Sequence record: PX441839.1 | From: a phage | DNA: 64,000 bases | Direction: 5' to 3' (one strand) | Shown: in pieces, positions 31,482 to 59,613 of the stretch | Layout of the letters: the number at the start of each line of letters is the position of its first letter | Numbering within the stretch: position 1 is the stretch's first letter | Program-made: the position numbers and the translations under genes | Notes under the pieces: generated by a model | What the model was told of the DNA's origin: nothing | Seen by the model: the letters and a program-made list of their open reading frames with translations, nothing else | Database searches by the model: none

Positions 31482-34400
31482 ATGGAATATCAAGATAAGG
31501 TCGTTGAGGTTCTGGTAACGGCTCCTGTAGCTGACGCAGGTCAGACTGCTGGTTCCGGTGGCGGAAACTTCACTGGCATTGAAACCCTCAACACGCCTTC
31601 CACATCCCTTGTTGGTAAAGGCACCCCTTCTTCACCCCTTCAATCAAACGTCAATATCTCTCGTCGTACAGGTAACAGATTAACTGTAGTTAACGATCAG
31701 AATGAGACGGGTCTTTTCGTAGGCTCTGCTGAAACAAAGATTTCAAGCAAAGCTGGAAATACGATCAAGGAAATCACCCGTACAGAAGCAGAAAACGCAG
31801 GGGACCCTTCCTTAGAGGGAATTTACTCTGCCCCGGTTAGTGAGTCTGTATCTTCCCCTAACAAGACTGTCAAGATTGCACAAGTTGCATCTGACAATTC
31901 AAAGTCTACCATTGAAGTTGCTGTTTCTGCAGCAGATAACAATGCCCTCGTTGTTGGTGAAGACGGTCTGAGTGTACCAGTGTCTAAGTCTCTTGACAAC
32001 ACACTGGAAATTCGGCAAGGTGCTCTGTATGTGCGCCCACAAGAGACCCAGATCTCTCAAGATCCTGCAAACAAGATTGAACTGAAACCTGACGGTATCT
32101 TTGTAGAAACCGTAAAAGGTGATAAGGGAGATACAGGTGAGCAAGGACCAGCAGGTCCAGAAGGTCCTCAGGGTCCAGCAGGTAAAGACGGCGCACCTGG
32201 TGTAGAAGGTCCTCGTGGACCAGAAGGTGAAAGAGGTCCGGCTGGAATCGGCATCAATGTTATTGCTCAGTTGGCAACTGTTGATCAGCTTCCTCCTGTA
32301 GAGAACTACGAAGATGGTGACACCTTCGTTATTGATGGTCACTTCTGGACTAAAACTACAGTAGGTGATACATCCCAGTGGACTGATGTCGGATCTTTCA
32401 TTGGACCAGAAGGTCTGGATGCCTATGAGGTTGCTGTACAAGATGGTTTCGAAGGTACAGTTGATGAATGGTTGGCAAGCCTTCGTGGTGCTGACGGTAT
32501 CGGTCTGCAACTCTTAGGTTCATTCAGAAGCGTTGATGACCTCCCAATGGAAGATAACAAGGCAGGTGATGCCTATATCGTCCAAGAGCAGATGTGGGTT
32601 TGGGACACTGTTCAGTGGGCACCTGTTGGACAGGTTGGCCCAGAAGGTAAGTCAGCGTATCAAGTTTGGTTGGCTAATGGTAACACTGGTTCGCAGAATG
32701 ACTTCTTGGCATCCTTAAAAGGAGAGAAAGGAGACAAGGGCGATAAAGGTGATAAAGGAGACAAGGGTGAAGACGGTAAGAACGCCAACGCCGTAAACAT
32801 TCTTGGATCTGTTGAAACCGAGGCTGACCTTCCTGACGGTGCTGATGCCGGGGACGCATACCTGATCGGAGAGAACGTATGGGTATCCGATGGCGCAGGT
32901 AAATGGACAGACCTTGGCTCTTTCCGTGGTCCAGAAGGTCCTCGTGGAGTACCTGGTGAAAAGGGTGACAAGGGCGATACTGGTGCTCAAGGTGGTACAG
33001 GTAAGAGCAACTATGACCTCGCTGTAGAGGAAGGATTCACTGGAACTGTTGCCGAATATTTGGAATCCATCAAGGGTGAAAAAGGAGACCAAGGTCCACA
33101 AGGTCCTCGTGGACTGACCGGACCTAAAGGCGACAAAGGTGACACTGGAACAGGACTTACAGTTAAAGGATCTGTTGCATCTGTAGAAGACCTACCTGCT
33201 GCTGGAAATGCAGAAGGTGATGCCTATTTCGTTGGTACTCATATGTATGTTTTCCTGTCTGGTGCATGGGAAGATGTCGGTGAGTTGAAAGGTGAAAAAG
33301 GCGATAAGGGTGACACAGGACCTAAGGGAGATACAGGCCCACAGGGTCCAGCGGGTGAGCGTGGTCCTCAGGGTGTTCAAGGTCTTAAAGGCGACACTGG
33401 CCCAGTGGGTCCTCAAGGACCAGCAGGTAGGGACGGTGTAGACGGTACAAACGGAACCGATGGTAAAGACGGAACAGGTCTGATGCCAAAAGGCACCGTT
33501 GCAACTCAGGCGGATCTCCCTGCAACTGGTAATTCTATCGGTGATTTTTATACGGTAGAAGAGGAAGGAAGGGGTTACGCTTGGAACGGAACAGAGTGGA
33601 TCTACTCCGGTGTGGCTCAGGGTCCTCAAGGACCAGCGGGTGAAAACGGTGCTGATGGTGCTACAGGTCCTCAAGGCCCACAGGGTCCTAAGGGTGACAA
33701 AGGAGACATGGGGCAAGGTATTCTGCCGAAGGGAACTGTCCCGACTCAGGCTGACCTTCCTACCGAAAACAATGAAATTGGTGACTTCTATGTTGCTGAT
33801 GACACTGGAATCGGTTACGCTTGGAATGGCACAACCTTCATTAACTCTGGGATTTCTCGTGGTAAAGACGGGGAACAAGGTCCACAGGGTGAACAGGGTA
33901 TTCAAGGTGAGCAGGGTCCTGCTGGTCCTAAGGGAGATACGGGGGATACTGGTCCTCAAGGCCCACAGGGGGATATTGGCCCAGGTGTAGAAATCATCGG
34001 TAAGCTGAATGATCCTTCTGAACTTCCGGCAACCGGAGAACTTGGTCAAGGATACCTGATCGAGGGTGACTTCTGGGGTTGGACAGGTCAAGCTTACGAG
34101 AACTTGGGACAGATTCGCGGACCTGCGGGTCCGGTTGGTCCACAAGGGAACCCAGGTCCTGTAGGTGAGCAGGGTGTTCGTGGTGAGAAGGGTGATCAAG
34201 GCTCCTTATGGATCGTCTTTGGTAGAGAACCTACTCCTGCTGATGGTCGCGTAGGTGACTACTTCATGAACTCTTCCACTCTGGAGTTCTTCCGTAAGAC
34301 TTCTGCAACCAACTGGGCATCTCTTGGTTACATGGGTGGCGGTAACGTCTACGATGCACCTAAAGATGGGAAGCAGTACACCCGTTTAGATGGTGATTGG

Positions 34401-34769
34401 GAAGTTCTTTCTGTTACTGAGGCACCTGAGGACGGTGGGTACTACATCCGTACCAATGGTCAATGGCAAAAATTAGATCGTTACGACCTCCGTGTTGTTG
34501 AAACTACAGGTGCTATGGACGTATCTGTGAGTAACTGCTTCAAGGTTGACGGGACGGCTAATAAAACCATGTCTCTCACAGGACTCCCTCCTGACAGGGC
34601 GATGACTATTGTTATTCGCTTCTTGGGTAAAGGGGCGCAGTTGACTTGGCCTTCAAACCTTGCTTGGTCAAATGGTACACCTCCTGCTCTTGGCACAACC
34701 CGTACAGTGGTAACTCTGTTCTGGGACGGTGAATTCCTGACTGGGACTCAGGCGATGACTGTTGACTAA
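31482..34769 (+). CDS. collagen-like repeat fibre protein (1095 aa)
   Basis: multiple Gly-X-Y runs (e.g. [43 protein letters not shown]) alternating with a repeated module of the form LP..N..GD.Y.V....W.W.G..W..G. Confidence 0.7.
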   Translation: MEYQDKVVEVLVTAPVADAGQTAGSGGGNFTGIETLNTPSTSLVGKGTPSSPLQSNVNISRRTGNRLTVVNDQNETGLFVGSAETKISSKAGNTIKEITRTEAENAGDPSLEGIYSAPVSESVSSPNKTVKIAQVASDNSKSTIEVAVSAADNNALVVGEDGLSVPVSKSLDNTLEIRQGALYVRPQETQISQDPANKIELKPDGIFVETVKGDKGDTGEQGPAGPEGPQGPAGKDGAPGVEGPRGPEGERGPAGIGINVIAQLATVDQLPPVENYEDGDTFVIDGHFWTKTTVGDTSQWTDVGSFIGPEGLDAYEVAVQDGFEGTVDEWLASLRGADGIGLQLLGSFRSVDDLPMEDNKAGDAYIVQEQMWVWDTVQWAPVGQVGPEGKSAYQVWLANGNTGSQNDFLASLKGEKGDKGDKGDKGDKGEDGKNANAVNILGSVETEADLPDGADAGDAYLIGENVWVSDGAGKWTDLGSFRGPEGPRGVPGEKGDKGDTGAQGGTGKSNYDLAVEEGFTGTVAEYLESIKGEKGDQGPQGPRGLTGPKGDKGDTGTGLTVKGSVASVEDLPAAGNAEGDAYFVGTHMYVFLSGAWEDVGELKGEKGDKGDTGPKGDTGPQGPAGERGPQGVQGLKGDTGPVGPQGPAGRDGVDGTNGTDGKDGTGLMPKGTVATQADLPATGNSIGDFYTVEEEGRGYAWNGTEWIYSGVAQGPQGPAGENGADGATGPQGPQGPKGDKGDMGQGILPKGTVPTQADLPTENNEIGDFYVADDTGIGYAWNGTTFINSGISRGKDGEQGPQGEQGIQGEQGPAGPKGDTGDTGPQGPQGDIGPGVEIIGKLNDPSELPATGELGQGYLIEGDFWGWTGQAYENLGQIRGPAGPVGPQGNPGPVGEQGVRGEKGDQGSLWIVFGREPTPADGRVGDYFMNSSTLEFFRKTSATNWASLGYMGGGNVYDAPKDGKQYTRLDGDWEVLSVTEAPEDGGYYIRTNGQWQKLDRYDLRVVETTGAMDVSVSNCFKVDGTANKTMSLTGLPPDRAMTIVIRFLGKGAQLTWPSNLAWSNGTPPALGTTRTVVTLFWDGEFLTGTQAMTVD

Positions 34770-34810: not shown

Positions 34811-35461
34811 ATGGCAGTAGATCCAAACAGCAAGATTGAAGCTTGGACACCCATGATCAGAATTTCTGACATGAAATATCCAGTTTACCTGCGTGACTAT
34901 CTTGAGGAGTACAAAAACGTCAGTATCGGGTCTTTCGTGTGGGAAAGCGGGATGCGTGAGGTTGGATACTTTAAAGTCCACGATGTAGAAATCCCTATTG
35001 GGGATGTAGTCGTAGAAGGTGAACCAGCCTATAACGAGGAAGATGAACTTTGGTATAAGACTTGGATTGTCAGGGATTTCACCGAAGAGGAGATTGCTCA
35101 CAATCTCTATATGGCAAAAGAGGACGCTAAGTCTCAAGCTTATCGAATTTTTACCAATGATCAATCTTCCGGTGTTCTGGTAGATGGAGATCAGTTTAAT
35201 GTTGAGCCTCGTGAGATTACCAACTTAAGAGGTACACTCGAACTTGCCAATTTAGCAGGTGATGAGGAGAAGTTTCTTGTTCGCAAGGCAGACTTTTCAA
35301 TTCTGGAGCTTACTGCAAAAGAGACTGTTGAAAAGGTCACAAAAATAATTCTAGAGCAAGGAAAGTTACACCAAGCCCTTCTGAGCCATGTAAAAGAAAT
35401 CATGGATGCGGAAGACAGTGATTTAATCCCACCAACCCCACACACTTTCTTAGGAGAATAA
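34811..35461 (+). CDS. hypothetical protein (216 aa), possible fibre accessory protein
   Basis: ORF track; position after fibre gene. Confidence 0.45.
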   Translation: MAVDPNSKIEAWTPMIRISDMKYPVYLRDYLEEYKNVSIGSFVWESGMREVGYFKVHDVEIPIGDVVVEGEPAYNEEDELWYKTWIVRDFTEEEIAHNLYMAKEDAKSQAYRIFTNDQSSGVLVDGDQFNVEPREITNLRGTLELANLAGDEEKFLVRKADFSILELTAKETVEKVTKIILEQGKLHQALLSHVKEIMDAEDSDLIPPTPHTFLGE

Positions 35462-35462
35462 T

Positions 35463-35813
35463 ATGTCTGCAATCGGCGGAACATCTTTAGGTCTGATTAC
35501 TGGCTATGCGATCATGGATCAGTCAACTGGTGAAACAAAAACCATCTCCGAGTTACTCAGTGGTGCTGGGGGCGGCACACCGGGTCCTGTTGGACCTAAG
35601 GGAGATCAGGGTGAAGTTGGACCTCAAGGACCTAAGGGCGACACAGGCCCTGCTGGACCGCAGGGTCCTCAAGGGGAGCAGGGTGTAGGTATTGCACATG
35701 CCAATACAAAAATTGATGGACGTAATGTAACCATTATGTTTACGATGACGGATAACACAGTGAAAGAAGTTGTTTTCACAATTCCTGAACCAACCCCGAC
35801 CCCCTCTGCCTGA
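35463..35813 (+). CDS. small collagen-like protein (116 aa)
   Basis: [34 protein letters not shown]; N-terminus paralogous to next gene. Confidence 0.5.
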   Translation: MSAIGGTSLGLITGYAIMDQSTGETKTISELLSGAGGGTPGPVGPKGDQGEVGPQGPKGDTGPAGPQGPQGEQGVGIAHANTKIDGRNVTIMFTMTDNTVKEVVFTIPEPTPTPSA

Positions 35814-35825
35814 TATATTTACACC

Positions 35826-35848
35826 ACCGCCCTTCGGGGCGGTTTTCT
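35826..35848 (+). terminator. rho-independent terminator
   Basis: ACCGCCC-TTCG-GGGCGGT then TTTTCTT. Confidence 0.6.
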
Positions 35849-35870
35849 TGTATCTGCTTAAGGAGAAATT

Positions 35871-36545
35871 ATGGCAAAGCTTAAGGGTATTACTGGAAAT
35901 CAAAATGGGGTATTCTATGGTTATGCCCTCTATGATTTAAAATCTGAGAAGCTTATTCCTTTTAATGAGATTGGGGTAGGAGGCGGAGAAGCAGAGCAAG
36001 GTCCGGTAGGTCCTGTTGGACCACAAGGACCTAAAGGTGACAAAGGTGATCCTGGACCTCAAGGTTTGAGAGGTCCTCAAGGTCCTCAGGGACCTAAAGG
36101 TGATCCTGGCGCAAAGGGTGATGAAGGGATCGATGGTGCTGTTGGACCACAAGGTCCAAAAGGGGATAGGGGAGAACCAGGACCAGAAGGACCACAAGGT
36201 CCAATCGGACCCCGTGGACCAGTGGGACCTGCGGGAGCGACGGGTCTTAACTGGAAGGGACAGTATTCTGACTCTGTTACTTATCTTCTTGACGACGCTG
36301 TCGCGTTTAATGGTGCAACCTACTTTTCTGTCAAGGAGTCAACAGGGATAAGCCCAGCGGAAGATACAGTTCAAGAATACTGGGCTGTAATGGCAGCTTC
36401 TGGGGTAAAGGGAGACCAAGGTCCACAAGGTCCCGTGGGACCAGTGGGTCCTCAAGGTGAAAGAGGTGAACAGGGTATTCAAGGACCGAGAGGTCCAGTT
36501 GGAGAGACAGGACCTGCTGGACCTCGCGGACCGGAAGGGATTTAG
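35871..36545 (+). CDS. collagen-like protein ending at an in-frame amber codon (224 aa)
   Basis: long Gly-X-Y runs; TAG at 36543-36545 sits in the Y position of a GXY triplet (...GPEGI*GPQGPQG...). Confidence 0.55.
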
Positions 36546-36860
36546 GGACCACAGGGACCTCAAGGTATTCAGGGTCCTCAAGGTAAAAAGGGAGTTAATT
36601 GGAGGGGGAACTGGTTTAGAAACACCACATACACGAAAGATGACGCTGTTTATTTTGAAGGTACGAGTTGGATTTGCGATATAGACCATTCCTCGTCAGA
36701 TGACAATAAACCGGGAAGCCCTCAAAGATTTAAGTGGGCAGTTTTCGCCAAGAAAGGGGAAGACGGTCCTCAAGGACCTGCGGGAGAGCCAAAGAAAATC
36801 AACCATGTACTTCGGAATTGCTCCTGGAAATGGGGTGACATCATTCCTTGGACTTCCTAA
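36546..36860 (+). other. possible amber-readthrough extension of collagen-like gene (about 104 codons)
   Basis: same frame stays open to TAA at 36858-36860 and encodes a second copy of the upstream module (GVNWRGNWFRNTTYTKDDAVYFEG...FKWAVFAKKGEDGPQGPAG versus [24 protein letters not shown]...[20 protein letters not shown]). Confidence 0.4.
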
Positions 36861-37203
36861 TTCACCTACCCTTATGTTGGCGATACGGGGATTGGCGGAT
36901 AAGAATATTTCCGTAGGGCTTGTCTCTGGCGGTGCAGACAAGAGAGTTTCTTACAGATTTAGCTCTTTGTATGGTGGAGGTGGTGTTGATGGTCAATTTA
37001 ACCAATCTTACAACTTAACAAATGGTCTTCCTTTTATGGTTGACACACTCTATTACATGGACTCTCAAGAGAACCAAGTGATACTTATAAGTGATCTTGA
37101 AACTGGACAGGTATGGAGAGCGGATATGTGGGGAATAAACAGAAGATATTTTGTCGAGGTCTTTGAATTGACCGATGGCCCACAAGAGTACAAAATATAT
37201 TGA
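36700..37203 (+). CDS. hypothetical protein (167 aa), +1 frame relative to collagen frame
   Basis: ORF track; no clear RBS at 36700; C-terminal part looks globular; may be a separate gene or joined to the collagen frame by recoding or an indel. Confidence 0.35.
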   Translation: MTINREALKDLSGQFSPRKGKTVLKDLRESQRKSTMYFGIAPGNGVTSFLGLPNSPTLMLAIRGLADKNISVGLVSGGADKRVSYRFSSLYGGGGVDGQFNQSYNLTNGLPFMVDTLYYMDSQENQVILISDLETGQVWRADMWGINRRYFVEVFELTDGPQEYKIY

Positions 37204-37208
37204 TAACT

Positions 37209-37236
37209 AGCCACCTTCGGGTGGCTTTATTTTTTA
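37209..37236 (+). terminator. rho-independent terminator
   Basis: AGCCACC-TTCG-GGTGGCT then TTTATTTTTT. Confidence 0.65.
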
Positions 37237-37289: not shown

Positions 37290-37820
37290 ATGACCAACGA
37301 AGAACTGATTGAACTGGTCAGGGCTTTCCTCGGCAACGCTGATTCAGAAACCCTGCCTGATAACATAATCCTTCTGTTTTACAATAAGTGGGGGTTGTCT
37401 ATGGATCTAGACAATCACCCAGAAAGATTTCCAAACGTGCTATACAATACGGTTGTAGACTGCGTAAGATGGTTAATTGCTCAAGAGGTTTCAAGTGGTG
37501 CATCCTCAATAACTGAGCGATTTGAAAAGATAGGTGATGAAACTATCTCTGTGAAGGGAGGTTCATCCTGGAAATCGTGGCAAGACTTCCTTGAATGGCT
37601 TCTTCTGAACCCTGATTACATAGATCCCTCATTGGCTATGAACTCCTCGCTGGTGATCATAGGTGGTGTAAGAAAGGACAGATTCATGTCTGTTAAGAAC
37701 AACCCCAATTCTTATAATGGGTTTATGGAACAGGGGGTTTTCCCTACTCCAGCGATACCGAAGAAGGCTAAATGGCCCGGAGGCGGTGGAGGTTATCGCA
37801 GTAGCCCGTGGCTTCGATAA
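37290..37820 (+). CDS. hypothetical structural protein (176 aa)
   Basis: ORF track; AGGAGGT RBS-like sequence upstream. Confidence 0.45.
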   Translation: MTNEELIELVRAFLGNADSETLPDNIILLFYNKWGLSMDLDNHPERFPNVLYNTVVDCVRWLIAQEVSSGASSITERFEKIGDETISVKGGSSWKSWQDFLEWLLLNPDYIDPSLAMNSSLVIIGGVRKDRFMSVKNNPNSYNGFMEQGVFPTPAIPKKAKWPGGGGGYRSSPWLR

Positions 37821-50445: not shown

Positions 50446-51936
50446 ATGGCTAAACCACGCAGCCAGCTTGTCGTTTGGGCAAGACAAGATGTTGCTTTGC
50501 CAAACACTGGCAGGATCAACAAAGTAAAACCTATTGATGACCTGTTGAATAAGGGTTATGATAAAGGTCAGAAGCCAGCGGCAGAAGAATTCAACTACAT
50601 CTTGAACATGTGTACCGATTGGGTACGATACATGCACGATGAGAAATTTCCAGAGTTTGAGAGGCAGATAGAAGAGAAGCTTGAAGCCTTCAAAGACGAG
50701 ATGGAAAAGGAGATGGACAAGGTCCGTGGGGAAATGGACCAATTGGAAGCCTCTGTTAATAATAAACTGGCGGCTTTTGAATCTTACCTTGTTCCAGTAG
50801 GGGCGGTTATTGCTTGGCCCTCTACAACAATACCGAAGGGTTGGTTAGAGTGTAACGGACAAGGTTTCAATATTGGTCAGAACCCCCGTCTGTATGCGGC
50901 ACTCGGAAGAGGTAACGTACCGGATTACCGTGGATTGTTCTTGCGAGGATGGGCACACGGTTCTGGTGAATATGATCCTGATGCAGGAAGGACTCTTGGC
51001 TCCATTCAGGGTGATGCCATTAGGAACATCACAGGTCGATTCGCTGCTGACCACGGTGAAACATGGATCATTGGTGCCTACAACGAGGGGGCCTTTTATG
51101 ATGCAGGTGTTGCTGGGTCTGGTGACAAGGGCGGGAAGGCAAACGAAACCCGTCAGATCCGATTTGATGCCAGTCGTGTTGTACCAACTGCGCCGGAAAA
51201 CCGACCTAAGAACATCGCAGTAATGTACATCATAAAGGCAGATGCTGCAACGGCAACTGGTGGTAATGTCCCAACAGGACTGGAAGTGACACCTGAAACA
51301 TTTGAGGGCCTTGTAGGTTCTACTTTCAGAGCCTCTGCTCAAGTTCTTCCAACGAACATGGCTCCTCAGTATCCTGTATCGTGGACCAGTCAAAACCCAG
51401 CAGTGGCAACTGTGGACGCCCAAGGTAATGTAAGAATTGTTGGTCAGGGGACAACAAGCATTATCGCATCAATATCTTCTGGGATGAACTCTAGGATCTC
51501 CATTGTGGGTCACAAACCTCTTACTGGCCTCTCTATCGCCCAGTTTGAAAATTTAGAGGTCGGTGGGAGCATAAGGACGACTGTAGCAAGAATACCATCT
51601 GATTCAACAGAACCCTTAATCTTCTCCACTGGCAACACAGGGATCGCCAACGTAACTCAAGATGGGGATGTTGTTGGGGTTGCAGAGGGAACAACTACCA
51701 TTTCTGCAAGGGGTCGGTTCACAGGGATAACTGCCAGAGCAAGCATAACCGTTGTTCCAGAAGAGGTTGTGACAACTGTTGAAGACATTATGCTGGGTAT
51801 TGAACAGCAAGCTCCAAACGCTGCACCAAAAGGATGTGTAATAACATACGTCGATGGTGGTGAAAACATGGAGTATGTCAGATATAAGCCCATCCAGAAG
51901 AAGGTAAATGGGGTGTGGGTAACTATTGAGGGTTAA
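50446..51936 (+). CDS. tail fibre protein with tail-collar domain and Ig-like (Big_2-type) repeats
   Basis: GAVIAWPSTTIPKGWLECNGQGFNIGQNPRLYAALG...PDYRGLFLRGW matches phage tail collar motif; two ...ATVDAQGNVRIVGQGTTSI... style Ig-like repeats. Confidence 0.6.
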   Translation: MAKPRSQLVVWARQDVALPNTGRINKVKPIDDLLNKGYDKGQKPAAEEFNYILNMCTDWVRYMHDEKFPEFERQIEEKLEAFKDEMEKEMDKVRGEMDQLEASVNNKLAAFESYLVPVGAVIAWPSTTIPKGWLECNGQGFNIGQNPRLYAALGRGNVPDYRGLFLRGWAHGSGEYDPDAGRTLGSIQGDAIRNITGRFAADHGETWIIGAYNEGAFYDAGVAGSGDKGGKANETRQIRFDASRVVPTAPENRPKNIAVMYIIKADAATATGGNVPTGLEVTPETFEGLVGSTFRASAQVLPTNMAPQYPVSWTSQNPAVATVDAQGNVRIVGQGTTSIIASISSGMNSRISIVGHKPLTGLSIAQFENLEVGGSIRTTVARIPSDSTEPLIFSTGNTGIANVTQDGDVVGVAEGTTTISARGRFTGITARASITVVPEEVVTTVEDIMLGIEQQAPNAAPKGCVITYVDGGENMEYVRYKPIQKKVNGVWVTIEG

Positions 51937-51938
51937 TT

Positions 51939-52454
51939 ATGAAGATGGAAAACTTTGAAGTTTACTCTCCAGAATTTAAAAGGTTTGGAGAGGGCGTCCA
52001 ATATTTTAGGGATGCAGAAGGAAGAGACTTCTATGAGAGTCGTGATCTTTTCACCAAGAAGTATTGCGTGTTCTACGACGAGCATGGGGTTGTAAGGGGT
52101 ATCTGCAAATCAGTGGAGGTTACGAGGGGGAACCCTAACGGTCTATCTATTGCAGATCTCAACTCCTTGCCCAGAGGGTTTGAGATGTTCAAGGGTATCT
52201 GGAAATTCGACGGAAAGAGGATAATTCCTTGTGATTTTGACCCTGCCATAACAACCAAGATGCGGAAGGATAAGTTATTCAAAGCTCTTGCCTCACGACT
52301 TGCCCCTCTTCAAGATGCTGTTGAATTGGAGGAAGCCACAGAGGAAGAGACCTTGGAATATAAAAGGCTCCGTTCATTAAGGGTTAAGCTTCTCCGAGTC
52401 CCAGATGACGAGTCCCCTAGTAATGTAGCTTGGGAAGATTTCTCGGGTATTTAA
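51939..52454 (+). CDS. tail fibre assembly protein (Tfa-like)
   Basis: follows fibre gene; C-terminal EEATEEETLEYKRLRSLRVKLLRVPDDESPSNVAWEDF resembles Tfa chaperone tails. Confidence 0.5.
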   Translation: MKMENFEVYSPEFKRFGEGVQYFRDAEGRDFYESRDLFTKKYCVFYDEHGVVRGICKSVEVTRGNPNGLSIADLNSLPRGFEMFKGIWKFDGKRIIPCDFDPAITTKMRKDKLFKALASRLAPLQDAVELEEATEEETLEYKRLRSLRVKLLRVPDDESPSNVAWEDFSGI

Positions 52455-52494
52455 TAGCTGCCAGTGCCGACCCTGTCGGCACATAGGAGATAAA

Positions 52495-52833
52495 ATGATT
52501 CTTGATATAATGGCAGTTCTTAAAGCACTCTGGGGATTTGCCACTTTTATTTTGTTGGGGATTCTCAAAATTACGTATTCTGACTTCAAAAAGATGCAGG
52601 AACGTCAGGACACTCTTGAGAAAGATATTATCCGACTCAGGAGTGAGATGGTTACTAAGGACAGTCTTGATGATATTTTTGATCGGAAGATGAAACATAT
52701 TCAAGACACTATCCAGGATATACGTGGGGATCTCGCAGACATGCGAGGAGAAACAAAGGACGAGGTTACTGCCTTACGTAATGAAATCAGGACTGTTTTG
52801 AATGTAGTTTTGGAGAGAAGCAACAGACAATGA
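52495..52833 (+). CDS. membrane-anchored coiled-coil protein (112 aa)
   Basis: N-terminal transmembrane helix LKALWGFATFILLGIL then charged helical region. Confidence 0.4.
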   Translation: MILDIMAVLKALWGFATFILLGILKITYSDFKKMQERQDTLEKDIIRLRSEMVTKDSLDDIFDRKMKHIQDTIQDIRGDLADMRGETKDEVTALRNEIRTVLNVVLERSNRQ

Positions 52834-53291
52834 TATCTTCCCTGTTCTACGGGATGTGCTTCCTGATTGTCCTTATGAACCCTTGCGTTCGTACAAAAAT
52901 AATGGCGGGGCTATGCCTCGCCTATATTGTAATAGAGAATATGATGCTTTGGTACACAATAACCAATGTTATCCATTTCGATATTACCCTTTATCATACC
53001 CTCGGGTGGATATTGGATTCAACTCTTTTGTTTGCAGTGGGTTGTGTTTTAAGAGGAAAGAGGCAGATCCTCATCATAGCTTCCGCAATACCCCTTATGG
53101 TGTCTCAAGTGTTAGCAATCCAATATCCTTCTATGTTCCCACCTGATGTATACCAGTGGGTAATTAAAGATGCTCACATGTATTTTATTGAGATGTTTAT
53201 CTTCGCTCATTCTTGGAAAGACAACACAGTAAAAGAGTGGTTAAAGACAGGAACAGTGTTGGGCCTTGTTGTTGCTGCACATTTAGTTTGA
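52830..53291 (+). CDS. polytopic membrane protein (153 aa)
   Basis: several hydrophobic segments; ATGA overlap. Confidence 0.4.
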   Translation: MISSLFYGMCFLIVLMNPCVRTKIMAGLCLAYIVIENMMLWYTITNVIHFDITLYHTLGWILDSTLLFAVGCVLRGKRQILIIASAIPLMVSQVLAIQYPSMFPPDVYQWVIKDAHMYFIEMFIFAHSWKDNTVKEWLKTGTVLGLVVAAHLV

Positions 53292-53310
53292 TTGATATTA
53301 CAGGTGGTAT

Positions 53311-53583
53311 ATGTTAAAATTCCTAAAGGACTTGATCCGGTCCACAACCGACCCTGCCAAGGCTTCACATACAAAGCTTTGGTCGAATATCGGTATGGCT
53401 TCAATGACTGCGGTGTTTCTCTGGTATGGTTTCAAAGGAACCCTCCCTGAGTGGTATTTGTGGGTTTATGCCCCTTCCGTTGCTGCACCACAGTTATTTA
53501 GCAAACTGATCGCCCTTCGTTGGGGAATAAACCCCAACCAGAAGAATACAGAAGATGAATTAAAAGGAGATCCTCGTGGCTGA
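53311..53583 (+). CDS. small membrane protein, holin-like (90 aa)
   Basis: two hydrophobic segments (IGMASMTAVFLWYGF, YLWVYAPSVAAPQLFSKLIAL), charged C-terminus. Confidence 0.35.
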   Translation: MLKFLKDLIRSTTDPAKASHTKLWSNIGMASMTAVFLWYGFKGTLPEWYLWVYAPSVAAPQLFSKLIALRWGINPNQKNTEDELKGDPRG

Positions 53584-56500
53584 TGATATTATTCAACTGA
53601 TCAGTGCAGAAGCTGACGCCGCTGTTGACCAAATCATTGAAGACTCTGTAAGGCTTCATAAAGTTGTAAATGGAACTGGAGTTGAGACAGTTGTAACAGA
53701 AGATGGTAGCATAATCCCTTCTGTTCGAAAAGCCCTGATTGACAACTTGTATTTTAAGACCCCTCCAATTCCTTGGAGACAAGGAACACAGGTAAGAGAG
53801 TTTAACCAACTTTATTCCTTTACCGATGTAAACGGAAAAGCCACTTGGTGGTATGCACCAGGAGCTACAAACAGTTCACCAGTGACGCAAGGTGATCAGC
53901 CAGCTACGGATACAAGATGGAGAGTGTTCTTAGATGCTGGGAATATGGATGGGATCTATGCTCCGATCCTGTCTCCAGATTTCAAGGGAAATCCGAGAGT
54001 ACCCACCCCTGCGGAAGGTGATGAGAGCACCTCAATTGCAAACACACTGTGGACAAAAAATGCGATAGCAAAAGCTATTGACATTGCACTTCCTAACTGG
54101 GATGATGCAATTTTTAACAACATCACTGTTAAAAATAATTCGGTGCTCAATAATCTCAGAGCAGACGGGCAGGTAACTTTTACTGGTCCGAAGGTCGATG
54201 CTGTTGATTCAGAGTTCAACCTTAAAAAGATCAATCTCGTCGGGGAAGATGCAGAAATAAATTTCCTTTGGTCTGATGGATCAGGTTACAGAACAAACCT
54301 GACACCCAACAAGATCTTCACTGCGGAAATGACGGCAAACAGGGTCAAAGGTTCGTATGTTGAATCAGGAGAACCTCGTGCTGTTGGAACAACTATGCGT
54401 GGGCATGGAGAGGCAATCTTTGATACTGTGCATATCTCAAAAAACGAAAGACAGCCAGTGGATGCAGACACATTATCTGTCACTGGGATAACCCGTGTTC
54501 AAAACCTCATTGTAGAGGGAGAGGCAGTAGGGATCAAGTCTAACGTAGATGGAACAACCATCGCACCGAGCAACATAAACAATGATGGGCATATTAATAC
54601 CAAATCCCTGTATGTCTCCGAAGAGACTCAATTGGATGGTATTACAAGGATCGGTGATGTAGAATTCTTAGGGACTGTCAAGGGACTTGATATGAATATC
54701 GAGTTCGACGAGATGAACCTTAAGAGTTTAAATGTCGCAGAATCCCTTGTTGTTGGTGGACAAACAACAATGTCTGCCGCTGTTATCGGAGATGTTGTTT
54801 TCACTGGATCTGTGGCGGGTATCGTATTGCCACCTGCCAATGTCGATGGACAGGAAATAAAACCTGCCTCTGTTGAGACAGAAACTCTCGATGTGTTGGG
54901 AGAGACCGTTCTTGAGAACCTGACAGTAAATGGAACGGTGACTGGCATTGACATGTCTGTAGATGGAACAGACATATCCCCATCAAATGTTACGACAGGA
55001 AACTTAACCGTTAATGGACAGCTTACCATGAACGGGGCTATCCAAATTAACAATATTGATGGTGACTCTGTCAAGACGAAAACGTTAGAGGTCTCCAACT
55101 TAGCAACTGTTCAGAATCTGACTGTTCCAGAGGAAGGGACTATAACGGGTTTTGGAAAGGTTGTCAATGAGCAAGATATCCTTCCAAACTCTGTCTCTGT
55201 AAAAGAGGGGTTGTCTGTAGGAGGAACTACTAACCTGAGAGATGTGAACATCTCTGGGAAAGTAACTGGACTCAATCCCGATTTCGGGCCTGGTTCAACG
55301 ATTACCTCTGACACGGTAAATGCTAAAACGGTAAATGCTGATACTGTCAATGCAACTACTTCCAGGACTGGGAACATAACGGTTACTGGAAGGATCTTAG
55401 ATGCAGAAGGAAATGATTTTGCTCTCCGTGTAAGTCCAGAACAGATTGGTGAAGCTATCAAGGTTCTTGATATCCAGCCAAAAACCATTGTTACTAAAGT
55501 CAGTGATGAGGATAAAGGATCTGTAACCACAGGTACAATCACGGCTGATAATGGAAACATTGGAACTTTAGGGACCAGCAACCTCACCATGCAAAATGGT
55601 ACGGTAAACGGATCTTTGAAGGTGATGGGAGAGATCCTGGACAAGGATGGAAACCCTGTTGCAATTATGGACATTCCGAGCATGATTGCTGGGAAGGACA
55701 TCGCACCGAAGGACGTTAGATCCTCTGGCTCTGTAACTGCCGCTGTGGACCTTACCGTCAATGGAAAGGCCAAGGTAGGTGGAACCTTAGAAACAGGCTC
55801 TGTGACCGTTACAGGAGGTCTCAGCACAACAGGCAGTGTCACTGTAACTGAGCAGCTATCTGTTCTTGGCAACGCTGTTGTTTCTGGAAGTCTACAGTCA
55901 ACAGGTGCGGACATTGGAGGAACGACCTCTGTTGACAATCTGATTGTAGCTGGAACCCTTACAGATGCACAAGGGAACCCAATTGGATCTGTCGAGTCAA
56001 TCACAGGGAAGGATATCAATCCTCGTGCTGTAACTGCAACTGGTAATATTTCCACAACAGGGACTATTACCGGACAGTCTGGTAGAGTAGATGAATCATT
56101 CACTGTAGGAACTGACCTTGGGGTTTCAGGTAAGTTGTCAGCAGGAGAGACAACACTTGGAGTCACAAAAACATCTTCTCTGGAAACAGGTCCAATAAAG
56201 ACATCTGGAATATCTGTCCTTGAGGGTAGTATTTCGACAGGCAAAGCTGTGACTGTAGGAACTGACCTTACTGTAACAGACAATGCCGTCATCGGTCATG
56301 TAGATATGGATTTTGACGGTGATCGGTTGAAGGTTGTGGGGAACCAACGGGTAGAGGGGAACCTGTATGTAACTGGAAACATCAACGGGAACGTAGATAT
56401 TTCTGGGCAGGATATTAACCCGAGATCTGTAACTGCCTCTGGTAATATTTCGGTTGCAGGTACAATTAGCTCCGACATTGGAGATTTCAACTCTGTCGAG

Positions 56501-57064
56501 ATTGGTGTTTCTGGAACTGCGGTTGGCCTCAGGGTCCTCAATAATGCAACTTTTGCTGGAGATCTCACTGTCTCAGGAAAGGTCAATGCAACTATTGACC
56601 AATCCGAGCAAGATGTAGTGACAAAGAACCTGCAAACTGGTAATATAACTGCAACGGCTATAACTGCTGGAAGTTTAAATGTTACTGGTGCTCTTAAGGC
56701 CCCGACTTCGGATGTTGAGGCAAACAGTGTCACTGCAAACAAGTTCATGGTCACACCTCAAGAAAGAACGCTAGATACTGGGGCATTTATCCCTGATGGA
56801 ACAACCAATATCTACAATATTGTATTGACACAGAATACAAGAATTGAGGCCCCTAGTCAACTTATTCAAGGTGGCAAGGGTGGTTCTATCATTATCTACT
56901 TGAACCAGGATGCAACTGGTGGTAGGGAGGTAACATTCTCCACAGAGTATCAAGCTCTTAATGATGGTGAAATAAATATGAACCCTAGTGGTGTTACTGT
57001 GGTCCAGTTGATGTATTCTGGACATGGAAGCATCATTGATACACTTATCCTTCCTAGAGTGTAA
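53576..57064 (+). CDS. long tail fibre / tail needle protein (1162 aa)
   Basis: GTG start after AAAGGAG; highly repetitive beta-rich sequence with recurring V.G.L.V.G and T.GNIT.TG units. Confidence 0.6.
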   Translation: MADDIIQLISAEADAAVDQIIEDSVRLHKVVNGTGVETVVTEDGSIIPSVRKALIDNLYFKTPPIPWRQGTQVREFNQLYSFTDVNGKATWWYAPGATNSSPVTQGDQPATDTRWRVFLDAGNMDGIYAPILSPDFKGNPRVPTPAEGDESTSIANTLWTKNAIAKAIDIALPNWDDAIFNNITVKNNSVLNNLRADGQVTFTGPKVDAVDSEFNLKKINLVGEDAEINFLWSDGSGYRTNLTPNKIFTAEMTANRVKGSYVESGEPRAVGTTMRGHGEAIFDTVHISKNERQPVDADTLSVTGITRVQNLIVEGEAVGIKSNVDGTTIAPSNINNDGHINTKSLYVSEETQLDGITRIGDVEFLGTVKGLDMNIEFDEMNLKSLNVAESLVVGGQTTMSAAVIGDVVFTGSVAGIVLPPANVDGQEIKPASVETETLDVLGETVLENLTVNGTVTGIDMSVDGTDISPSNVTTGNLTVNGQLTMNGAIQINNIDGDSVKTKTLEVSNLATVQNLTVPEEGTITGFGKVVNEQDILPNSVSVKEGLSVGGTTNLRDVNISGKVTGLNPDFGPGSTITSDTVNAKTVNADTVNATTSRTGNITVTGRILDAEGNDFALRVSPEQIGEAIKVLDIQPKTIVTKVSDEDKGSVTTGTITADNGNIGTLGTSNLTMQNGTVNGSLKVMGEILDKDGNPVAIMDIPSMIAGKDIAPKDVRSSGSVTAAVDLTVNGKAKVGGTLETGSVTVTGGLSTTGSVTVTEQLSVLGNAVVSGSLQSTGADIGGTTSVDNLIVAGTLTDAQGNPIGSVESITGKDINPRAVTATGNISTTGTITGQSGRVDESFTVGTDLGVSGKLSAGETTLGVTKTSSLETGPIKTSGISVLEGSISTGKAVTVGTDLTVTDNAVIGHVDMDFDGDRLKVVGNQRVEGNLYVTGNINGNVDISGQDINPRSVTASGNISVAGTISSDIGDFNSVEIGVSGTAVGLRVLNNATFAGDLTVSGKVNATIDQSEQDVVTKNLQTGNITATAITAGSLNVTGALKAPTSDVEANSVTANKFMVTPQERTLDTGAFIPDGTTNIYNIVLTQNTRIEAPSQLIQGGKGGSIIIYLNQDATGGREVTFSTEYQALNDGEINMNPSGVTVVQLMYSGHGSIIDTLILPRV

Positions 57065-57074
57065 TGTAAACAAT

Positions 57075-57103
57075 AGCCCCTACTAAGGGGCTATTTTACT
57101 TTT
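57075..57103 (+). terminator. rho-independent terminator
   Basis: TAGCCCC-TACTAA-GGGGCTA then TTTTACTTTT. Confidence 0.6.
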
Positions 57104-57114
57104 GAGGAGACAAA

Positions 57115-59613
57115 ATGATACCTTTCCCATTATTAGGTGGAAAATCACCAACTCCACCACCGCCACTTCCAAAGGGCGTTTCTGGGTACTCAGGAACTAC
57201 CTACATAGGTGAAGATGGTGAAACTTGGTCTTGGAACAGGCAACTGGAGAGATGGATTAAAAAAGATCCGTTTCCAGTTGACGAAGGGCATCCTGAACAC
57301 TTCATGGTGGGGCCTGCAAAGATAGGCACAGATGGTTCTTTCCGATACTTCAATACTGTAACCAACGCTTGGGAAGATGTTCCTAACGGGAGCACCTTGG
57401 GGATGGTCCCTCTGACCCTGACAGATGAAGGCGTAAACATAGGGACATCGGTATTTGTAGAGTATCCCATTTATCAATCCGCTGGGTATGCCGTAGGTCT
57501 TGGAGGGTTCGCAAGACTGCTTGGGACGGAGGTACTGGGAAGACCAGATCTTATGGACCTGTACCTTATAGGAAGAAGAGGGGATTTCTTTTCACCTTCT
57601 CCTGCAAACCCTGACTCCACCAACGCAATTCTCGTAATTCGAAATGTTAAAAGGGATAGGGTGTGGAATACTTACCTGAACATGGTTGTGGAAACAAGTG
57701 ATGGGGAGATGTGGGCTTGGGGAATGAACTTCTATAATCAGTACGGCCCTTGGATAAGAAGCGGAGTAACAAGTTCCAGTCAACCACACATGAAGATAAA
57801 CCCATTCTCTAAAATATCTGATTTTCCAGTACCACCTGAGAAAATAAAAGATATCTTCCCCGGTGTAACAATGGTCATAGTTGCAGACACTGACGGGAAA
57901 TTCTGGTCCAAAGGGATTAACATTGGTCAGTTTAACGATATTGATGACCAAATTAGGACAGCCTGGGTAGAGATACCCGCAGATAGGTTCCCAGGGTTTA
58001 AAAAGTTTTATCGGAGTCTTAACGGAACAGGTGCCGCCAATGATCTTGCTTACACCAACTGCGTTTGGTATTTGACAGATACAGGGATAAGACATTTTGG
58101 AAATGTGTATGGAGTGATGGACGGTTCCCCACTTGTATCTGCAACAACTAGGGATCTCCCTGACAGTAAAGTTCACTCAGCCCCTGTAGGATTGCCTGAA
58201 AGGAATGATGAGCCTAAAATAGTGAGTTTTTCACTGGCCAGATCTTCTGACTATATCCTTATTGCTGTTTGGTATGATGACCCCGAAGAGATGTATGTTG
58301 CCTATCCTACTTCTGGACTTATTTGGGACCACGCAGATGGAGTAACGTATGGGAGGAGATTCAATAAATCCTCAGCCCCTGTAGGGAAGCATAGGAACCC
58401 CATACTGGACTTCAATAAAGAGGCCACCCTTATAACGGGGTTTGATGGAAAATTCTATGCTTCTGGGACCCCAAGTGTAAATAACGGGCTATACTCAAGA
58501 ACCAGCCCAACCACTTTTATCGACCAGAAGATGCCATCCTCTCTCGTTTATCAGGTTGAGCTATCCGACTCTGTAAACGGAAAAACTCAACTGTTGAGAA
58601 ATGATAGGCGTTCTTTAATGATAGCCGACCTTTCGGGAGGAAGCAACTACTTTGGAAATGGAACTTTCTGGAAACCAACTGCAACGATTAAGTGGCCTGA
58701 CTATCCAGACGCAATTCCAATAGTGTTCAAGAATGATGGTGTCACTATCTCGGGATCTGCTGAAAGGGTAGATACGTTTTGGGGGTGGAATGTTAGCAAC
58801 TACAACACTGTCAGCAGTACAGCCGGAGACCAGTACGGTGCTCCCAGTGGGGATGCTGTGCATGTCTCAGGGGAAGGGCACCTTACAATCTGGAAAGATG
58901 ATAGCAGTATCCTTGTTGGTGGTTACAACATAGGTGGAGTGTTTGGTGCTTTTAACCAGTGGAAGCAACCACAAGGTGCTGGAAGGTGGGTAGGCACAGT
59001 AAGAGAGTCTTTTACTGGCACATCGACAGTAAGCTGCGGAACCACTATTGCTTGGGATGGAAAAGATCATTACATATTTGGCAAAAACTACTGGGATGTT
59101 GCAAACGGACAACCAGTAATAAAGTTCAGTTCCTCTGCACCTGTAAAATGGAACAGTAAACAGGGATACCCGAACCTCCCTAATTTTATAAAATGGATTC
59201 CTGCAATTATGGGATATTCTGATGACGAGGGTTCTTTGCAACAACCCTTCTTTATGTATCGGGGTACTGACGGTCTGTTTTATGCTGCGGGTAGCAATAC
59301 AACAGGTGCCTTGGCGACAGGGACCCCACCTGAGACAAGGGATGAGCAAAGATGGACTTTTGAGGTAATGAAGGGATCTGAGGTGTTTGTTGGTAAAAAT
59401 GTTAAGGTTTACCACGGACACGGAAATACCTCTTGTTTGTTGTTCGCTTGCGAGGGAAAGGTGTACGGTGTTGGATTACCTAACAGTATGAAATGGAATG
59501 ACACCGGAACCATCCCTGACCCGTTCTTCCCTGGTTTCAACAGAAGGCTTAATGAAATCACCTACCTGATGGATTTGCCGGATGTTATCTATACCCGACC
59601 AATAGAAGAATAA
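57115..59613 (+). CDS. RCC1-like beta-propeller repeat protein, probable tail protein (832 aa)
   Basis: repeated RCC1-type motifs GEMWAWGMNFYNQYG, GKFWSKGINIGQFND, GLFYAAGSNTTGALATG, GKVYGVGLPNS; AGGAG RBS. Confidence 0.5.
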   Translation: MIPFPLLGGKSPTPPPPLPKGVSGYSGTTYIGEDGETWSWNRQLERWIKKDPFPVDEGHPEHFMVGPAKIGTDGSFRYFNTVTNAWEDVPNGSTLGMVPLTLTDEGVNIGTSVFVEYPIYQSAGYAVGLGGFARLLGTEVLGRPDLMDLYLIGRRGDFFSPSPANPDSTNAILVIRNVKRDRVWNTYLNMVVETSDGEMWAWGMNFYNQYGPWIRSGVTSSSQPHMKINPFSKISDFPVPPEKIKDIFPGVTMVIVADTDGKFWSKGINIGQFNDIDDQIRTAWVEIPADRFPGFKKFYRSLNGTGAANDLAYTNCVWYLTDTGIRHFGNVYGVMDGSPLVSATTRDLPDSKVHSAPVGLPERNDEPKIVSFSLARSSDYILIAVWYDDPEEMYVAYPTSGLIWDHADGVTYGRRFNKSSAPVGKHRNPILDFNKEATLITGFDGKFYASGTPSVNNGLYSRTSPTTFIDQKMPSSLVYQVELSDSVNGKTQLLRNDRRSLMIADLSGGSNYFGNGTFWKPTATIKWPDYPDAIPIVFKNDGVTISGSAERVDTFWGWNVSNYNTVSSTAGDQYGAPSGDAVHVSGEGHLTIWKDDSSILVGGYNIGGVFGAFNQWKQPQGAGRWVGTVRESFTGTSTVSCGTTIAWDGKDHYIFGKNYWDVANGQPVIKFSSSAPVKWNSKQGYPNLPNFIKWIPAIMGYSDDEGSLQQPFFMYRGTDGLFYAAGSNTTGALATGTPPETRDEQRWTFEVMKGSEVFVGKNVKVYHGHGNTSCLLFACEGKVYGVGLPNSMKWNDTGTIPDPFFPGFNRRLNEITYLMDLPDVIYTRPIEE

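Follow-up and report, generated by a model that had tools for sequence, protein, structure and literature searches.

Why does a collagen-like phage gene end at a stop codon that falls inside one of its own collagen triplets? The question is raised by a locus at 35871-37203 of the window, the 64,000-nt stretch of E. coli phage CF01 (PX441839) that was analyzed here; all features of the locus lie on the + strand. The whole phage genome has 142,427 bp, ten tRNAs, and 96% average nucleotide identity to Salmonella phage SSBI34, and it was determined by MiSeq and Unicycler (PMC13031394). The gene starts with an ATG at 35871 and continues for 224 sense codons, after which an in-frame amber TAG (36543-36545) occupies the Y position of a collagen G-I-Y triplet. 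An earlier note on this DNA had drawn attention to the stop, to a frame that stays open for about 104 codons beyond it, and to a second copy of an upstream module within that frame; the coordinates and translation were confirmed. The note offered three explanations: programmed readthrough or suppression giving two isoforms, a decaying gene with a recent nonsense mutation and an indel, or assembly error. Our comparisons indicate that 35871-37203 is one ancestral collagen-like fibre gene of about 443 codons, now lying in three open reading frame (ORF) pieces, and the second explanation is the best supported of the three.

The first of the three pieces is the 224-codon ORF that ends at the TAG. 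In the second, the original frame is open for 104 codons beyond the TAG (36546-36857) and is ended by a TAA at 36858-60. These codons encode further collagen, a second NW(K/R)G...DAV.F.G...W...KG module, and a short collagen stretch. Collagen region 2, which extends as far as the stop (36405-36542, from the translation and Pfam), continues past it at 36546-36590 and is followed by CBM5/12-like module 2 (GVNWRGNWF...FKWAVFAKK) at 36591-36755. Module 2 matches Pfam CBM_5_12 (PF02839) with an E-value of 2.4e-4, which is below the gathering score, and PHROG 5073 with an E-value of 1e-14. A short collagen linker, GEDGPQGPAGEP, then leads to KK, which by alignment with homologues are the last codons of the original frame (36756-36797). 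The third piece is a +1-frame ORF at 36700-37203. It contains a C-terminal beta-sandwich head of 134 codons (36799-37200), with encoded peptides that include VSYR... and YFVEVFELTDGPQEYK, and it ends at a TGA (37201-03) that is followed by a TAA (37204-06).

Homologues place these pieces in a single gene. An exhaustive HMMER search with the +1 ORF against 1.84 billion representatives found eight homologues at E<1e-10, with E-values from 1e-18 to 1e-26, and the domain is C-terminal in all eight. A search with the 224-aa N-terminal part also ranked two of them highest, P0001 (374 aa) and P0004 (324 aa). Each consists of one ORF and occupies the same syntenic position, upstream of the PF26075 adaptor. 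When the window frames are joined (frame 0 to 36797 and the +1 frame from 36799), the product of 443 residues aligns end to end with P0001 and P0004. Skipping A36798 gives GEPKK followed directly by STMYFGIAP, and this junction agrees with GEPTVQKYYGLVP and GAPGRVSEKVFGLIP of the intact homologues, in which the junction segments read GEPTVQKYYG and GRVSEKVFG. Codon-usage scoring, which is independent of the homologues, puts the frame switch at about 36786. Based on this switch and on the homologue junctions, the A4 run at 36795-36798 is the probable site of a one-base insertion that breaks the frame by +1. A frame shift at the terminal TCC TAA T (36855-61) was also considered and rejected, since codon usage and the homologue alignment put the change about 60 nt earlier.

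The earlier note had described the +1 ORF as having a globular-looking C-terminus, and this proved to be the genuine C-terminal head of the same gene family. Its AlphaFold2 (AF2) model is a beta-sandwich (pLDDT 86, pTM 0.81) that resembles the C-terminal domains, or fibre tips, of phage 'tail fibre-like' and collagen-like proteins in BFVD (TM 0.6-0.78); no match to the model was found among solved structures. The locus matches PHROG 5073, 'tail fiber protein', with an E-value of 1e-57. Terminator-like hairpins flank exactly 35871-37203. One, from terminator prediction, closes the preceding unit, a 116-aa collagen-like gene (35826-35843), and the other is predicted right after the head stop codon (37209-37226) and is also present in SSBI34; no terminator-like site is predicted inside the locus. 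A Shine-Dalgarno sequence, AAGGAG, can be read 5 nt 5' of the first ATG (35860-35865). Separate expression of the distal pieces was rejected, as ATG 36700 and ATG 36805 have no Shine-Dalgarno sequence at a usable distance, and so was separate expression of the extension, which has no in-frame start past the TAG.

The remaining domains complete the ancestral order: N-terminal anchor, collagen, CBM5/12-like module, collagen, second module, short collagen, and beta-sandwich head. Residues 1-40 (35871-35990) form a non-collagen domain that is presumed to be the virion anchor, with a motif common to the orthologues (KGITG.QNGV.YGYALYD...IPF), and the N-terminus of the 116-aa protein (35463-35813) is a paralogue of this domain. 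Collagen Gly-X-Y region 1 follows at 35997-36245 (Pfam PF01391, E 2.9e-21). CBM5/12-like module 1 (GLNWKG...YF...) lies at 36246-36404; its homologues contain PF02839, and it matches PHROG 5073.

Other searches were less informative. Word-indexed protein searches gave no matches to the +1 ORF or to the 43-aa N-terminus, and tblastn of the +1 ORF in the phage collection and IMG/VR gave none either. A word-indexed search with the 224-aa query was swamped by collagen proteins, with the true orthologues P0001 and P0004 as its top two matches, and an IMG/VR scan with the same protein returned generic collagen genes only. Exact-product look-ups found none of the window proteins on record, and a scan of genome contigs found no relative.

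A single unbroken ORF of 374-770 codons fills the slot in Cronobacter phage CR3, Pectobacterium phage POP15, Escherichia phage LTH01, and several metagenomic relatives; among the intact slot genes are CR3_011 (456 aa), POP15_012, and the LTH01 gene (565 aa). Like the PHROG 5073 orthologues CR3_011, LTH01, P0001, and P0004, the window gene has the N-terminal motif, collagen, the CBM5/12-like module, and the slot, and it shares its head with P0001 and P0004. Unlike them, the window copy is interrupted twice and its module is duplicated. It therefore has the domain set of a PHROG 5073 fibre with a P0001-type head, and the slot upstream of the PF26075 adaptor, without the single uninterrupted ORF. 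CR3 and LTH01 have another head. Assignment of the window head to the CR3 type was rejected, as the BLASTP E-value between them is 0.42 and the head types are different.

The record nearest to the window is that of SSBI34 (MZ520832, Vequintavirinae). The earlier note had proposed looking in orthologues for a sense codon at the TAG site, and one is found there: SSBI34 has GAG (Glu) and P0001 has Lys. An in-frame TAG of its own follows 38 codons later in SSBI34 (AVFF-TAG-GTSW), at a codon that is GAA in the window, and past that TAG the SSBI34 frame is open for 166 codons, to a different head. In the SSBI34 record, QYC52519 (262 aa) and QYC52520 (105 aa) are annotated as separate hypothetical proteins at 56372-57661 (L001 5467-6756). 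Together they are one 429-codon collagen-like fibre gene cut by the single in-frame TAG (L001 6253-55).

A third broken version is found in four metagenome contigs that are identical across the gene (L090, L091, L092, and L095). Here, the orthologue is split at GAC AAA GGG TGA TGA, at about 3285-3305 of L091. Dropping one base after GGG gives a perfect Gly-X-Y register, and an AAGGAG lies 5 nt 5' of GGG; the break represents a one-base insertion or else a +1 shift site next to the stop. The SSBI34 head, past its TAG, is 59% identical to the L091 head, past the frame break (E 7e-57), and these two represent a third head type. The adaptor of the L091 group is 60% identical to that of the window. 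Judging from these alignments, independent lesions arose in two lineages besides the window. The gene is absent from phiTE and ABPH49 and, by coordinates, also from KaOmega and the F1M1E group. In total, at least seven lineages have it intact, three have it broken, and at least four lack it. These relatives can do without the gene, as the window phage presumably can.

The earlier note was right to regard the downstream sequence as real coding sequence, and this is supported by dN/dS (the ratio of nonsynonymous to synonymous divergence), the codon-usage frame switch, and the full-length homologues. Between the window and SSBI34, the proportion of changed synonymous sites (pS) is 0.72-0.74, meaning that synonymous sites are saturated, and that of nonsynonymous sites (pN) is 0.15-0.16. 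The dN/dS is 0.05-0.07 in all segments, whether upstream of the window TAG, between the two TAGs, or downstream of both; it is 0.06 for the collagen just past the stop and 0.05-0.06 for module 2. These values indicate that the distal part was under the same purifying selection as the upstream part in the past. Since dN/dS is even throughout, the distal sequence was translated for essentially the whole divergence of the alleles. The breaks are therefore either young or bypassed, and sequence alone cannot tell which. Within its family, the window head has diverged the most, with 9 of 26 family-invariant columns changed, compared to 8 of 34 in P0001, which is no evidence of relaxed constraint in the window head.

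The window gene carries two lesions within 255 bp of each other: the TAG at codon 225, and one extra base at or near the A4 run, in the context AAG AAA ATC. No other disrupted gene was found in the window among the approximately 75 SSBI34 coding sequences mapped to it, and only one further frame difference exists, a 2-nt indel in an HNH gene that is intact in the window. Three lesions (two in the window and one in SSBI34) are thus located in one 1.3-kb gene, with none in the approximately 75 other shared genes except the HNH indel. This concentration suggests that the gene tolerates loss unusually well or that propagation hosts select for loss of the tip.

Errors in sequencing, assembly, or consensus could produce the same picture if the true genome reads GAG at 36543 and AAA at 36795-97, with the gene intact. 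Each lesion involves a single base, one is in a short homopolymer, and the region is rich in imperfect repeats. However, the 41-nt sequence that surrounds the TAG occurs just once in the window, and DNA similarity among the collagen repeats is only 60-76%, making misassembly through repeats unlikely. Two independent errors would also be needed within 255 bp of one gene, with none in the approximately 75 others. A four-base homopolymer is short, and such indels are rare in MiSeq data, the type used for CF01 (PMC13031394). SSBI34, sequenced by MiSeq at about 500x (PMC8879037), and the four identical metagenome contigs show that such lesions do occur in this gene. We consider an artefact quite improbable.

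Another possible explanation is that the TAG is decoded as an amino acid, through a suppressor tRNA of the phage or host or through amber reassignment in late genes, which occurs in some crAss-like and Lak phages. An in-frame TAG is present in the same late gene of two related phages, and TAG is a rare terminator in both, ending 3 of 75 window genes (two of them in a TAG-G context) and 4 of 81 genes in SSBI34. A low share of TAG terminators is, however, normal for enterobacteria and their phages. ARAGORN found 10 tRNAs in the window (20173-22361). None has a CUA anticodon, as the earlier note had stated, and none of the 10 in the complete SSBI34 genome does. Three other window genes end in TAG, and no other in-frame TAG was found in the approximately 75 shared genes, in a scan based on the annotated SSBI34 coding sequences. 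Neither mark of amber reassignment, a CUA tRNA or many in-frame TAGs with TAG unused as a terminator, is therefore seen here. Moreover, suppression would leave the frame break unrepaired. Decoding of the TAG is very improbable, more so than an artefact.

The gene probably encodes an accessory, virion-associated collagen-like fibre that can be dispensed with, and it was probably knocked out recently by a stop codon and a one-base insertion, with the lesions presumably not bypassed. A G-to-T change would have converted a Glu codon to TAG at codon 225, and a single base would have been inserted in the A-run at 36795-98, immediately ahead of the C-terminal head. Translation would then give almost exclusively the N-terminal fragment of 224 residues, consisting of the anchor, collagen, the first CBM-like module, and part of collagen region 2. 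Module 2 and the beta-sandwich tip would be an untranslated remnant that is so far undecayed. The 224-residue stump is presumably still anchored through its N-terminal domain, so that a truncated fibre may still be assembled. By analogy with lambda PaPa stf, loss of the tip may be tolerated, or even selected, on the propagation host.

Several observations weigh against loss of the gene. The downstream sequence is undecayed, with no further stop in the 80 codons that precede the frame break or in the 134 that follow it, and the head folds confidently, which would also fit continued translation. In three lineages (SSBI34, the L090/L091/L092/L095 group, and the window), the gene has a single-site lesion with the distal ORF intact, which exceeds the expectation for random loss and could mean that the breaks are bypassed or selected. 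The window and SSBI34 stops are both amber, and among the window tRNAs is a tRNA-Gln(UUG) that is near-cognate for UAG and UAA through a first-position G-U pair.

The same observations favor an exploited or programmed recoding, in which low-level amber readthrough at 36543 and a +1 slip of tRNA-Lys on AAA-A would yield a few full-length chains. Most fibres would be short and a few tipped, with SSBI34 (at its other TAG) and the L090 group (at its GGG-UGA shifty stop) using other routes. In addition to the intact downstream ORFs, formerly under purifying selection, the 59% identity of the SSBI34 and L091 heads is about that of the adaptor of the same two lineages (60%). AAA-A also permits perfect re-pairing after a +1 slip, and GGG UGA in L091 is built like a +1 shift site next to a stop. 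The finding of three independent single-site interruptions in one gene also speaks for this reading.

The tests for recoding signals mostly went the other way. The two closest relatives already differ at the site, and SSBI34 has no tRNA-Gln gene; therefore, there is no shared mechanism. No RNA structure was found after the TAG, where 36530-36650 folds less stably than shuffles (z = +2.0), or after the A-run (z = +1.15), and there was no match to an Rfam element. The base after the window TAG is G, and Poole et al. in 1995 reportedly found G after a stop to make a comparatively efficient terminator in E. coli, which counts against recoding. Of the features expected at a readthrough site, purifying coding selection on the extension is present, whereas conservation of the stop position among relatives and a stimulatory 3' context or structure are both lacking. 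A programmed +1 frameshift calls for a P-site codon prone to shifting, beside a stop or slow codon, together with a stimulator; at the A-run break, no stop or rare codon and no Shine-Dalgarno-like stimulator at the right spacing were found. No account of readthrough in fibre genes of this kind was found in literature searches.

Recoding would also require readthrough and the +1 shift to coincide, with an expected yield of the order of 1e-4 or less, and a trimeric fibre needs three such chains or mixed trimers. Programmed recoding is disfavored because the stop varies in position, neither the window nor the SSBI34 genome has a suppressor tRNA, TAG serves as an ordinary terminator, no structure was found, and two events are needed. 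With it, the idea of two isoforms from readthrough or suppression is disfavored, and the second lesion before the head tells against the two isoforms as well. We regard recoding as unlikely. A related reading is that the breaks represent recurrent, convergent dosing of the fibre tip, with one recoding site per lineage in three lineages of one clade and a distal receptor-binding head kept low and sub-stoichiometric. Amber readthrough would act at two different codons, and the +1 shift at GGG-UGA or AAA-A. Such dosing would explain the intact, conserved distal ORFs, and we hold it to be doubtful, about as improbable as an artefact.

Known recoding systems show the differences. In phage Q-beta, the textbook example of programmed readthrough in a structural gene of a phage, the A1 protein results from a leaky UGA that is fixed and conserved, and the extended coat protein is essential. 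The window locus is similar in that an in-frame stop in a structural gene precedes a long extension that is open and coding. Unlike in Q-beta, not even the nearest relative shares the stop, the gene is dispensable, and the reading frame breaks further downstream. Shifting by +1 next to a stop is known from prfB, at CUU UGA C, and from cps and tsh of Listeria phage PSA. The AAA GGG TGA TGA of the L091 group resembles these sites, having a P-site codon and then a stop, and a one-base skip restores Gly-X-Y. The window break is unlike them, as it is not at a stop codon and no spaced Shine-Dalgarno-like stimulator or RNA structure was found.

Of the known precedents, the closest is the side tail fibre gene stf of lambda PaPa, which Hendrix and Duda in 1992 reportedly found to be split into two ORFs by a single-base frameshift. 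In both cases, an accessory fibre gene is broken in a viable, lab-propagated phage, relatives have intact versions, and the downstream ORF can still be recognized. The window gene likewise is a presumably dispensable gene with point lesions in an otherwise intact sequence. The differences are that the window gene has two lesions (an amber and an insertion), encodes a collagen-like fibre, and lies between capsid and head-tail adaptor genes rather than in the tail-fibre cluster. In addition, one parallel case, the L091 group, is metagenomic; therefore, lab passage is not the sole possible cause.

For annotation, 35871-37203 should be entered as one disrupted fibre gene instead of a 224-aa gene and an orphan 167-aa hypothetical protein, and QYC52519 and QYC52520 of SSBI34 as the two halves of one TAG-split gene. 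Head domains have been swapped between lineages, as in host-range cassettes, and the gene has been broken independently at least three times. The mosaic patch in which it lies, the swapped heads, and the repeated breakage suggest that the fibre tip is a dispensable, fast-changing part, perhaps selected against. This is relevant to choosing or engineering such phages for biocontrol. Were recoding true, the locus would be a rare case of stop-codon readthrough in a structural gene of a dsDNA phage.

The surrounding genome is closely related to that of SSBI34. Approximately 75 annotated SSBI34 coding sequences are collinear on the window, most with 94-100% amino-acid identity. The phage is a member of the Vequintavirinae, rV5/phiTE-like. 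Three genes at 34811-37203 have only 76-78% amino-acid identity to SSBI34. This segment has the character of a mosaic patch, like the tail-fibre genes at 50446-59610. The window head belongs to a family other than that of the SSBI34 head, which points to an exchange of the cassette. Homology returns at the terminator hairpin. The tail-fibre and assembly genes at 50446-59610 have 79%, 74%, 73%, and 39% amino-acid identity to SSBI34, below the backbone, and this divergence fits the differing host ranges of the two phages.

The gene order is major capsid, a 1095-aa collagen-like structural protein, the gene studied here, and then directly the head-tail adaptor. The adaptor belongs to PF26075 (Phage_Adaptor_PhiTE) and is labeled 'Ad1' in rV5 records. 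Two more collagen-like genes lie upstream, one for the 116-aa protein (35463-35813) and one for the 1095-aa protein (31482-34769), in which several collagen blocks are interspersed with a repeated LP..G..GD.Y....W.W module. The collagen-like genes between capsid and adaptor are a family of virion fibres. The fibre is annotated as 'tail fiber', but a gene next to those of the capsid and the adaptor points to a head or neck fibre.

Three other differences from the SSBI34 record were noted. The PF26075-type adaptor gene (window 37290-37820, L001 6842-7372; 176 aa) is unannotated in the SSBI34 GenBank record, which has a gap at 57661-58340, although the adaptor appears in a table of the SSBI34 paper. 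The tRNA-Gln(UUG) gene is at window 22205-22279, where SSBI34 has tRNA-Met(CAU), and the other nine tRNAs share anticodons and order; a relationship between the two was considered and rejected, as they are unrelated genes. Finally, the HNH endonuclease ORF at 20451-20966 is intact in the window (171 aa), and the SSBI34 copy is truncated to 119 aa, with the 2-nt indel near window position 20714.

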